A stretch of DNA of 357 nucleotides from Escherichia coli (GTDB lineage Bacteria > Pseudomonadota > Gammaproteobacteria > Enterobacterales > Enterobacteriaceae): NCBI RefSeq assembly GCF_003334335.1, contig NZ_QOWQ01000206.1. One strand, given 5' to 3'. Each line of letters opens with the position of its first letter. Position 1 is the first letter of the stretch. Under the pieces are notes generated by a model. That model saw only the letters and a list, made by a program, of their open reading frames with translations. It was not told the origin of the DNA and did not search any database. The position numbers were made by a program, and so were the translations under genes. Below, in pieces: positions 1 to 246 of the stretch.

Positions 1-246
1 ACGCATAAACCGGTGCAGTACTATCCCGGGAAACATCCGTGCGAAAAACCGGCAGAAATGCTGCAGCAGATAATCAGCGCTAGCAGTCGTCCGGGTGACC
101 TGATTGCAGATTTTTTCATGGGGTCGGGTTCGACAGTGAAAGCGGCACTGGCGCTCGGGCGTCGTGCAACTGGCGTTGAGCTGGAGACTGAACGTTTTGA
201 GCAGACGGTCAGGGAAGTACAGGATTTAGTCAGCCAGAACGGATGA
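1..246 (+). CDS. DNA methyltransferase, beta-class N6-adenine/N4-cytosine family, C-terminal portion (5' end lies upstream of the window)
   Basis: The reading frame is open from base 1 (acg cat aaa ccg = THKP) and runs to TGA at 244-246. The GTG at 13-15 reported as the ORF start is therefore probably an internal Val codon. The translation contains two motifs that from established knowledge characterise the C-terminal half of beta-class amino-MTases: H-P-C-E-K-P (nt 34-51), matching the HP[TC]xKP motif, and D-F-F-M-G-S-G-S-T (nt 109-135), a motif I FxGxG-type AdoMet-binding loop, followed by a hydrophobic helix and a GxE segment. The catalytic DPPY-type motif IV expected N-terminal to these is outside the window. 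Target base (m6A versus m4C) and recognition sequence cannot be determined from this fragment. Confidence 0.88.
   Translation, partial: THKPVQYYPGKHPCEKPAEMLQQIISASSRPGDLIADFFMGSGSTVKAALALGRRATGVELETERFEQTVREVQDLVSQNG

Follow-up and report, generated by a model that had tools for sequence, protein, structure and literature searches.

Rare codons of a prophage DNA methyltransferase gene and the adjacent ileZ-argN-argO tRNA cluster in Escherichia coli

Codon-tRNA matching in lambdoid phages and at the present locus

The idea that tRNAs encoded by Stx and related lambdoid phages act as decoders of rare codons is said to be already present in the first descriptions of these phages, reportedly those of Schmidt in 1997 and Plunkett in 1999. 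In this work, we analyzed a stretch of 357 nucleotides of Escherichia coli DNA (contig NZ_QOWQ01000206.1 of assembly GCF_003334335.1; hereafter the window), which contains, in this order, the 3' end of a DNA methyltransferase gene (81 codons), a spacer of 40 nt and a gene for tRNA-Ile2(CAU), the first of the three genes of an ileZ-argN-argO cluster. A preliminary description of the window had noticed one ATA and one AGG codon among these 81 codons, and suggested a foreign gene whose translation is helped by tRNAs encoded in the same element. Both codons are indeed present and in frame, encoding Ile295 and Arg342. The observation holds, it belongs to a phenomenon already known, and a specific link between this gene and the tRNAs is not supported, given that the gene has an average rare-codon density, that the load is equal where the tRNAs are missing and that the tRNAs outlast the loss of the gene. 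It is likely that the two codons represent an ordinary draw from the lambdoid codon signature, at the junction of a late-region gene with a known tRNA cluster, the match between codons and tRNAs being a property of the whole phage population and not of this gene.

Stx phages generally carry a set of tRNA genes between q and stx (PMC7366253), and the role of these tRNAs as decoders of rare codons has been restated (PMC7946995, PMC3636060). The same two papers cite Bailly-Bechet, Vergassola and Rocha (2007) for codon compensation by phage tRNAs. As in that model, so far as it is presented in these citing papers, the tRNAs of the prophage studied here match the codons that it over-uses most relative to the host, namely AGG, AGA and ATA, and also CGG and CGA. 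Unlike the model, among lambdoid relatives the carriage of tRNAs is not accompanied by a higher load of such codons, in agreement with a comparison of 16 lambdoid phages in which codon adaptation was equal with and without tRNA genes (t = 0.088, P = 0.93; PMC4631060). The compensation model covers which tRNAs are retained, not the dependence of individual genes on them.

The cluster has the same tRNA-Ile sequence, the same tRNA order and the same position 3' of Q as the clusters of 933W, VT2-Sakai, phiP27 and Stx2a_1447, and in these phages the methyltransferase gene or its 3' remnant likewise lies just 5' of the tRNAs. The layout from Q to the tRNAs and on to stx or the lysis genes, all on one strand, is shared with Stx2a_1447, phiP27 and VT2-Sakai. 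Unlike the Stx phages, the prophage studied here has no stx and bears TerB-family and DUF3927 genes in that slot, and phiP27 and the Stx2c phages, unlike this prophage, lack argN. The tRNA cluster, its position, the rare-codon rationale and the enzyme family are already textbook matter (PMC7366253, PMC7946995, PMC3636060).

The enzyme, too, has a close described relative. M.EcoGII is a non-specific N6-adenine DNA methyltransferase from a prophage of E. coli O104:H4 (Murray et al. 2018, PMC5778455). Its describers state that the enzyme is kept silent in lysogens and that its constitutive expression does harm. The enzyme of phage 1720a-02, called very similar to M.EcoGII in that work, is 96% identical to the methyltransferase studied here. 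The place of this gene family directly 5' of ileZ-argN-argO, and in Stx phages also of stx2, is unmentioned in PMC5778455 and in the record annotations examined.

The window is 100% identical to positions 1206677-1207033 of E. coli JE86-ST05 (NZ_AP022815.1). The 65 kb around it are a lambdoid prophage whose insertion site is bordered by yccA of the host and by a tRNA-Ser gene, and the foreign origin proposed in the preliminary description is thereby borne out. The local gene order is Q, an open reading frame (ORF) of 65 aa, the methyltransferase of 352 aa, tRNA-Ile, two tRNA-Arg genes, the TerB-family gene, DUF3927, a nanS-p-type esterase, holin and lysozyme; Stx2a_1447, phiP27 and 1720a-02 have a matching order in which stx2AB replaces TerB/DUF3927. 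Sequences related to the window occur in 3,059 of 5,426 complete E. coli genomes, with at least 80% of the window covered in 1,806 of these and up to 12 copies of the segment per matching genome, and in 284 phage records, mainly of Stx2-converting phages.

Rare codons in the gene, the prophage and the host

Frame 1 of the window runs without interruption from the first nucleotide up to the stop codon TGA at 244-246, and among its 81 sense codons there is no AGA, CGA or CGG. The probability of finding at least two ATA or AGG codons in 81 is 0.025 with the frequencies of 85 core genes of the same strain, and 0.076 with genome-wide K-12 frequencies. Segments of 81 codons that contain both ATA and AGG make up 0.8% of those in the host core genes (n=85), 8.9% of those in the prophage and 14.5% of those in lambda. 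In the window alone the rare-codon signal is weak and only suggestive, as the preliminary description had itself cautioned, and it is the full-length gene that decides on enrichment.

The full gene has ATA at 4 of its 15 Ile codons and AGG at 3 of its 22 Arg codons, together with six CGG and no AGA or CGA. Genome-wide, ATA accounts for 7% of Ile codons and AGG for 2% of Arg codons in E. coli (PMC2408971). The share of ATA in the gene is above that of the core genes (p = 0.003) and above the genome-wide fraction (p = 0.018), and so is that of AGG (p = 0.001 and p = 0.009, respectively). It could be argued that two rare codons in 81 are sampling noise in a host-typical gene, since the window alone reaches only P of about 0.08 on genome-wide frequencies, the codons to be counted were picked after the sequence had been seen, and the rest of the gene is near to host-typical, both in the G+C content at third codon positions (GC3, 0.607) and in the codon adaptation index (CAI) without ATA, AGA and AGG. 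However, the enrichment of the full gene, a load of 14-26 ATA, AGA and AGG codons per 1000 in all seven orthologues and the enrichment of the whole prophage (p < 1e-14) led us to reject chance, which is now hardly credible as an explanation.

The same signal is seen across the prophage. In a set of 61 prophage genes ATA, AGA and AGG occur at 6.4, 6.2 and 5.8 per 1000 codons, compared with 2.5, 1.1 and 0.5 in the host core genes. When the synonymous fractions of all codons are ranked by their prophage/host ratio, the first three places are taken by AGG (9.4x), AGA (4.4x) and ATA (3.3x), with Fisher p values between 8e-15 and 8e-22; these are the codons read by the Ile2(CAU) and Arg(UCU) tRNAs. 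Next in over-representation come ACA, CGG (2.6x), GGA, CTT and CGA (1.9x). An ORF-based host count is higher (ATA 4.4-5.9 per 1000), the regions counted including an insertion sequence (IS) element, an effector gene and fimbrial pseudogenes, and was kept for comparisons between phages only. An origin of the rare codons in A+T-rich foreign DNA was ruled out, as the G+C content of the prophage (0.534) is close to that of the host (0.538) and the GC3 of the gene equals that of the host (0.608).

The comparison of codon usage and CAI proposed in the preliminary description was carried out for the full gene and its neighbors, and host-typical usage was not found, because both the gene and its neighbors are enriched in ATA, AGA and AGG. 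With 29 K-12 ribosomal-protein, elongation-factor and rpoA genes as reference, the CAI of the methyltransferase is 0.395, corresponding to the 24th percentile of the host genes (median 0.443) and the 64th of the prophage genes (median 0.369). When ATA, AGA and AGG are left out, the index of the gene becomes 0.438 and the host median, computed likewise, 0.457. The joint density of the three codons in the gene, 19.9 per 1000, is matched or exceeded by only 3 of the 85 host genes, and it lies at the prophage median of 20.0, with 32 of the 61 prophage genes showing an equal or higher value. Lambdoid genes use ATA, AGA, AGG, ACA, CGG and CGA severalfold above host core genes at a host-like G+C content, and the methyltransferase is an average member of such a set.

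The gene and the tRNAs beside it

The AUA-decoding tRNA that the preliminary description placed 40 bp downstream of the gene is found there, with a CAT anticodon (ARAGORN; Rfam tRNA model, 63.5 bits). By its sequence this is the AUA-reading tRNA-Ile2 and not tRNA-Met: 68 of its 76 positions agree with K-12 ileX, whose anticodon loop it shares unchanged, and many positions differ from the elongator metT. PGAP also annotates it as tRNA-Ile, and the label tRNA-Met given by ARAGORN was overruled on the same likeness to ileX and divergence from metT. It is identical over 76 nt to the annotated ileZ of Stx2a_1447 and matches about 280 phage records at 99% identity or more. Its stems differ from those of ileX by paired changes, such as C6-G67 to T6-A67. 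The acceptor pairs C4-G69 and C5-G68, which we take to be recognition elements of TilS, are present. Among records and papers on Stx phages the tRNA-Met label is common, for instance as 'tRNA methionine, arginine and arginine' (PMC7366253).

The companions of ileZ are not those that had been expected. The preliminary description supposed a tRNA-Arg(CCU) reading AGG, and no such tRNA is found in this cluster or in the six others scanned. The anticodons are, in order, CAT, TCG and TCT (ARAGORN, with the loops read from the sequence), that is Ile2(CAU), Arg(UCG) and Arg(UCU); the Arg(UCG) and Arg(UCU) pair occurs also in VT2-Sakai, Stx2a_1447 and 1720a-02, and UCU alone in phiP27 and one Stx2c phage. 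Reading of AGG here would need wobble by the Arg(UCU) tRNA, as the host argU (UCU) does (PMC2408971). The anticodon loop of argO is that of argU and its stems are widely different, and argO and ileZ are phage rather than chromosomal genes. To our knowledge, no tRNA gene of E. coli K-12 has a UCG anticodon. The argN tRNA would read CGA by Watson-Crick pairing instead of the inosine-adenine wobble of the host, and the methyltransferase has no CGA.

The mechanism that we favor for the lambdoid codon signature and its tRNAs follows the standard hypothesis that such tRNAs help translation. Upstream of both the methyltransferase gene and the tRNAs there are Q, a pR'-like promoter and a tR'-like terminator, so that gene and tRNAs are probably transcribed together by Q-modified RNA polymerase late in infection, as one antiterminated transcript. 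The tRNAs would be cut out of this transcript while the methylase modifies progeny DNA. Ile2 should read AUA once the host TilS has converted C34 to lysidine, Arg(UCG) would read CGA and CGG, and Arg(UCU) would read AGA and, by wobble, AGG. In this way, additional decoders for the codons most over-used relative to the host would appear during the translation of the late genes, with a presumed gain in translation.

A closer bond between the gene and its neighbors has to be considered, in which the methyltransferase would need the adjacent tRNAs and its ATA and AGG codons would be kept by linkage. The seven ATA and AGG codons of the gene, a density that so few host genes reach, fit with it, as does the position of the tRNAs, which follow the gene after 40 nt on its own strand and are separated from it by no terminator-like site in the regional scan. 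Among homologues AGG342 is kept in 5 of 5 and ATA295 in 4 of 5, and nearly all phage records with ileZ keep at least the 3' end of the gene just upstream of it, the gene segment being matched in 287 records and the tRNA, at 99% identity or more, in about 280. Nevertheless, the density of the gene is that of the prophage median, and the gene lacks both AGA and CGA, even though these belong to the codon boxes of two of the three tRNAs. Moreover, its rare codons turn over as other synonymous sites do: in homologues of about 85% nucleotide identity they are kept at 4 of 6 sites, compared with 70-73% for all synonymous sites, which gives no signal of selection for these particular codons. The ATA at codon 7 is conserved in 5 of the 5 homologues compared.

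Relatives that carry the gene without the tRNAs, or the tRNAs without the gene, count further against such a bond. SfV and Eeyore have a methyltransferase orthologue in the same slot (Q, terminator, small ORF, methyltransferase, holin), with no tRNA gene in the 3.2-kb stretches around it, and SfV is listed among phages without tRNA genes (PMC4631060). These two orthologues carry 25.8 and 14.3 ATA, AGA and AGG codons per 1000, respectively, versus 14.2-25.6 in the five tRNA-linked ones. In the VT2-Sakai type, conversely, the gene is reduced to its last 111 nt (window positions 136-246; L020:1801-1911) and the three tRNAs are retained; the AGG at 211-213 persists in this non-coding remnant. The bond specific to this gene, to which the preliminary description had inclined, is therefore not sustained by its density, by its tRNA-less orthologues or by the loss of the gene beside surviving tRNAs, and we consider it unlikely.

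The VT2-Sakai remnant begins right after a terminator-like hairpin, its breakpoint lying just past the FxGxG motif; downstream of it, the spacer and the tRNAs are the usual ones. Many Stx2a phage records likewise match only positions 136-246 of the window, and the 3' end of the methyltransferase, the spacer and the tRNAs behave as one mosaic module.

Whole phages without tRNA genes give the same picture as the orthologues. Lambda, which has no tRNA genes, uses ATA, AGA and AGG at 9.1, 9.9 and 4.9 per 1000 codons in its annotated genes. In a uniform ORF-based count, the tRNA-less lambda, HK97 and HK022 range over 7.9-10.2 (ATA), 8.8-9.7 (AGA) and 4.5-7.4 (AGG) per 1000, and the tRNA-bearing prophage studied here and phiP27 over 7.0-9.0, 6.4-7.4 and 5.7-6.2, respectively. 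Thus, compared with these three tRNA-less lambdoids and the two tRNA-less orthologues, no higher rare-codon load was found in tRNA-linked phages or genes.

A variant of the closer bond takes the properties of M.EcoGII into account: the rare codons, including the ATA at codon 7, together with the co-transcribed tRNAs would form a translational gate on a toxic, non-specific methylase. Stray transcripts in the lysogen would be poorly translated, and the late, Q-dependent supply of ileZ and argO tRNAs would allow efficient synthesis of the enzyme and methylation of progeny DNA. The tRNA-less orthologues weaken this proposal as well, and it seems to us very improbable.

It is also conceivable that the tRNAs serve other ends and are next to the gene only incidentally, namely decoding for high-level translation of downstream cargo such as stx2, provision of the lysogen with rare tRNAs through a separate promoter, or compensation for host tRNAs that are depleted or cleaved during infection. 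The persistence of the cluster in Sakai-type phages without the methyltransferase would agree with this, as would the Arg(UCG) anticodon, which is not known to have an E. coli counterpart in the K-12 set. The cargo version draws on stx2A: in Stx2a_1447 (L006:2130-3089) this gene has ATA at 15 of 20 Ile codons (75%) and AGA or AGG at 8 of 24 Arg codons (33%), far over the phage average. However, stx is missing from the prophage here, and the TerB and DUF3927 genes that fill the slot show no richness in these codons, with one ATA and one AGA in 142 codons and one ATA in 53 codons. For a supply to the lysogen, there is a promoter-like element with conserved hexamers directly 5' of the tRNA, from which the cluster may be transcribed independently, also in lysogens; the match to consensus is 9 of 12 positions, though, and the region holds three matches of this quality where 1.8 would be expected by chance. 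As for the replacement of cleaved tRNAs, loop changes are reported for phage tRNAs that evade host anticodon nucleases, and ileZ and argO show none of this kind, their anticodon loops being equal to those of the host ileX and argU. Taken as a whole, these other ends are quite unlikely to account for the cluster. The rare-codon bias of stx2A far exceeds that of any gene of the prophage studied, and near the cluster it is this cargo, rather than the methyltransferase, that relies most heavily on such codons.

Some points weigh against the reading of the codons as an ordinary lambdoid sample. The host background of 85 core genes comes from four regions of a single genome (JE86-ST05), and the controls are few, namely two orthologues and three lambdoids without tRNA genes. 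Promoters and terminators are assigned here by consensus match only. Furthermore, mosaic phages exchange modules, and tRNA-less ones may often replicate in hosts whose other prophages supply the tRNAs; because a genome can hold as many as 12 copies of the segment, an equal load without tRNAs is a weaker proof that the genes do not depend on them.

Features of the locus and their meaning

The features of the locus are collected in Table 1. The 3' end of the gene belongs to a protein annotated in RefSeq as a DNA methyltransferase, with a match to Pfam PF01555 (N6_N4_Mtase, E = 1e-42) over residues 29-340, a DPPY motif at residues 34-37, FFMGSGS at about residues 309-315 (beta-class order) and a weak helix-turn-helix match at residues 167-195. 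It is identical to M.EcoGII at 330 of 349 residues (95%; sequence as printed in supplement file 5 of PMC11551740). By these criteria the gene encodes a beta-class N6-adenine DNA methyltransferase of the M.EcoGI/M.EcoGII family, and from its 95% identity to M.EcoGII this allele would be expected to methylate adenine independently of sequence. As in M.EcoGII and M.EcoGI, DPPY is N-terminal, a central recognition domain contains the helix-turn-helix, FxGxG is C-terminal (PMC11551740) and the gene is borne by a prophage. It differs from M.EcoGII by 19 substitutions or gaps, some of which are perhaps machine-reading errors in the supplement text, and by a C-terminus three residues longer. Relatives with solved structures are distant only; the C-terminal stretch matches PDB chains of RsrI, CcrM and MboIIA. 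A prophage 'DNA adenine methyltransferase' later shown to be an rRNA methylase (Gong 2023, PMC10810198) was set aside as a different gene, of MT-A70 type, with a DPPW motif, an early-region location and a partner protein, PNB-2.

Table 1. Coordinates of the features in the window (plain numbers) and in the surrounding prophage stretch (L001)
Feature	Coordinates	Strand	Remarks
Q	L001:17940-18623		antiterminator gene
pR'-like promoter	L001:18613-18641		overlaps the end of Q; consensus match
tR'-like terminator	L001:18696-18710		after Q; consensus match
Methyltransferase 3' end, codons 272-352 and TGA	1..246	+	full gene L001:19188-20246, 352 aa
ATA codon, Ile295	70..72	+	one of 4 ATA of the gene; ATA in 4/5 homologues, ATG (Met) in Stx2c phage
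S-adenosylmethionine-binding motif I, DFFMGSGST (FxGxG)	109..135	+	from the translation
AGG codon, Arg342	211..213	+	one of 3 AGG of the gene; AGG in 5/5 homologues
Spacer	247..286	+	40 nt, stop codon to tRNA
Candidate sigma-70-like promoter (TTGAAG 249-254, 17-nt spacer, TATTAT 272-277)	L001:20249-20277	+	consensus scan, 9/12 positions
tRNA cluster	L001:20287-20538	same as Q	three tRNAs
tRNA-Ile2 (ileZ), anticodon CAT 320-322	287..357	+	window stops 5 nt before the 3' end; full gene 76 nt (L001:20287-20362)
argN, anticodon UCG	L001:20372-20448		tRNA-Arg
Terminator-like site	L001:20553-20570		after argO; consensus match
Holin	L001:24503		3' of the tRNA cluster

In the candidate promoter before ileZ, five homologues agree at the TTG and TATnAT positions and vary in the bases between them. 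The GC-rich gcggctccc 3' of TATTAT resembles the discriminator of stable-RNA promoters, and the promoter match ends 9 nt before the tRNA. The SfV record annotates terminators equivalent to those of Table 1 around its methyltransferase orthologue.

The TerB-family (tellurite-resistance-like) and DUF3927 genes (L001:20709-21301) take the stx2AB slot as an alternative cargo in this stx-less prophage. The ORF of about 65 aa 5' of the methyltransferase (phrog_331) is conserved in the prophage, in Stx2 phages and in SfV (L001:18840-19037; L017:344-538; L007:336-533), and might be a partner or regulator of the methyltransferase. The slot 3' of Q is occupied by tRNA-Thr(UGU) in other lambdoids, namely SfI, Sf6 and P21 (PMC3636060), and an Stx2f phage has Thr and Gly tRNAs (PMC7366253). 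It seems that this slot has been filled repeatedly from one short list of codons, with ACA, CGG and GGA coming next after AGG, AGA and ATA.

Beyond annotation the finding is of little import, as rare-codon tRNAs next to Q and lambdoid genes rich in rare codons have been described since the late 1990s. For annotation, the tRNA with the CAT anticodon should be entered as tRNA-Ile2, and not as the tRNA-Met of ARAGORN and many phage records, and the gene beside it is a near-identical relative of M.EcoGII, which is widely used, and sold, as a non-specific tool for m6A. With respect to the lambdoid family, rare codons beside phage tRNAs are no evidence that a gene depends on these tRNAs; since tRNA-less relatives carry the same load, adjacency should not be read as dependence.

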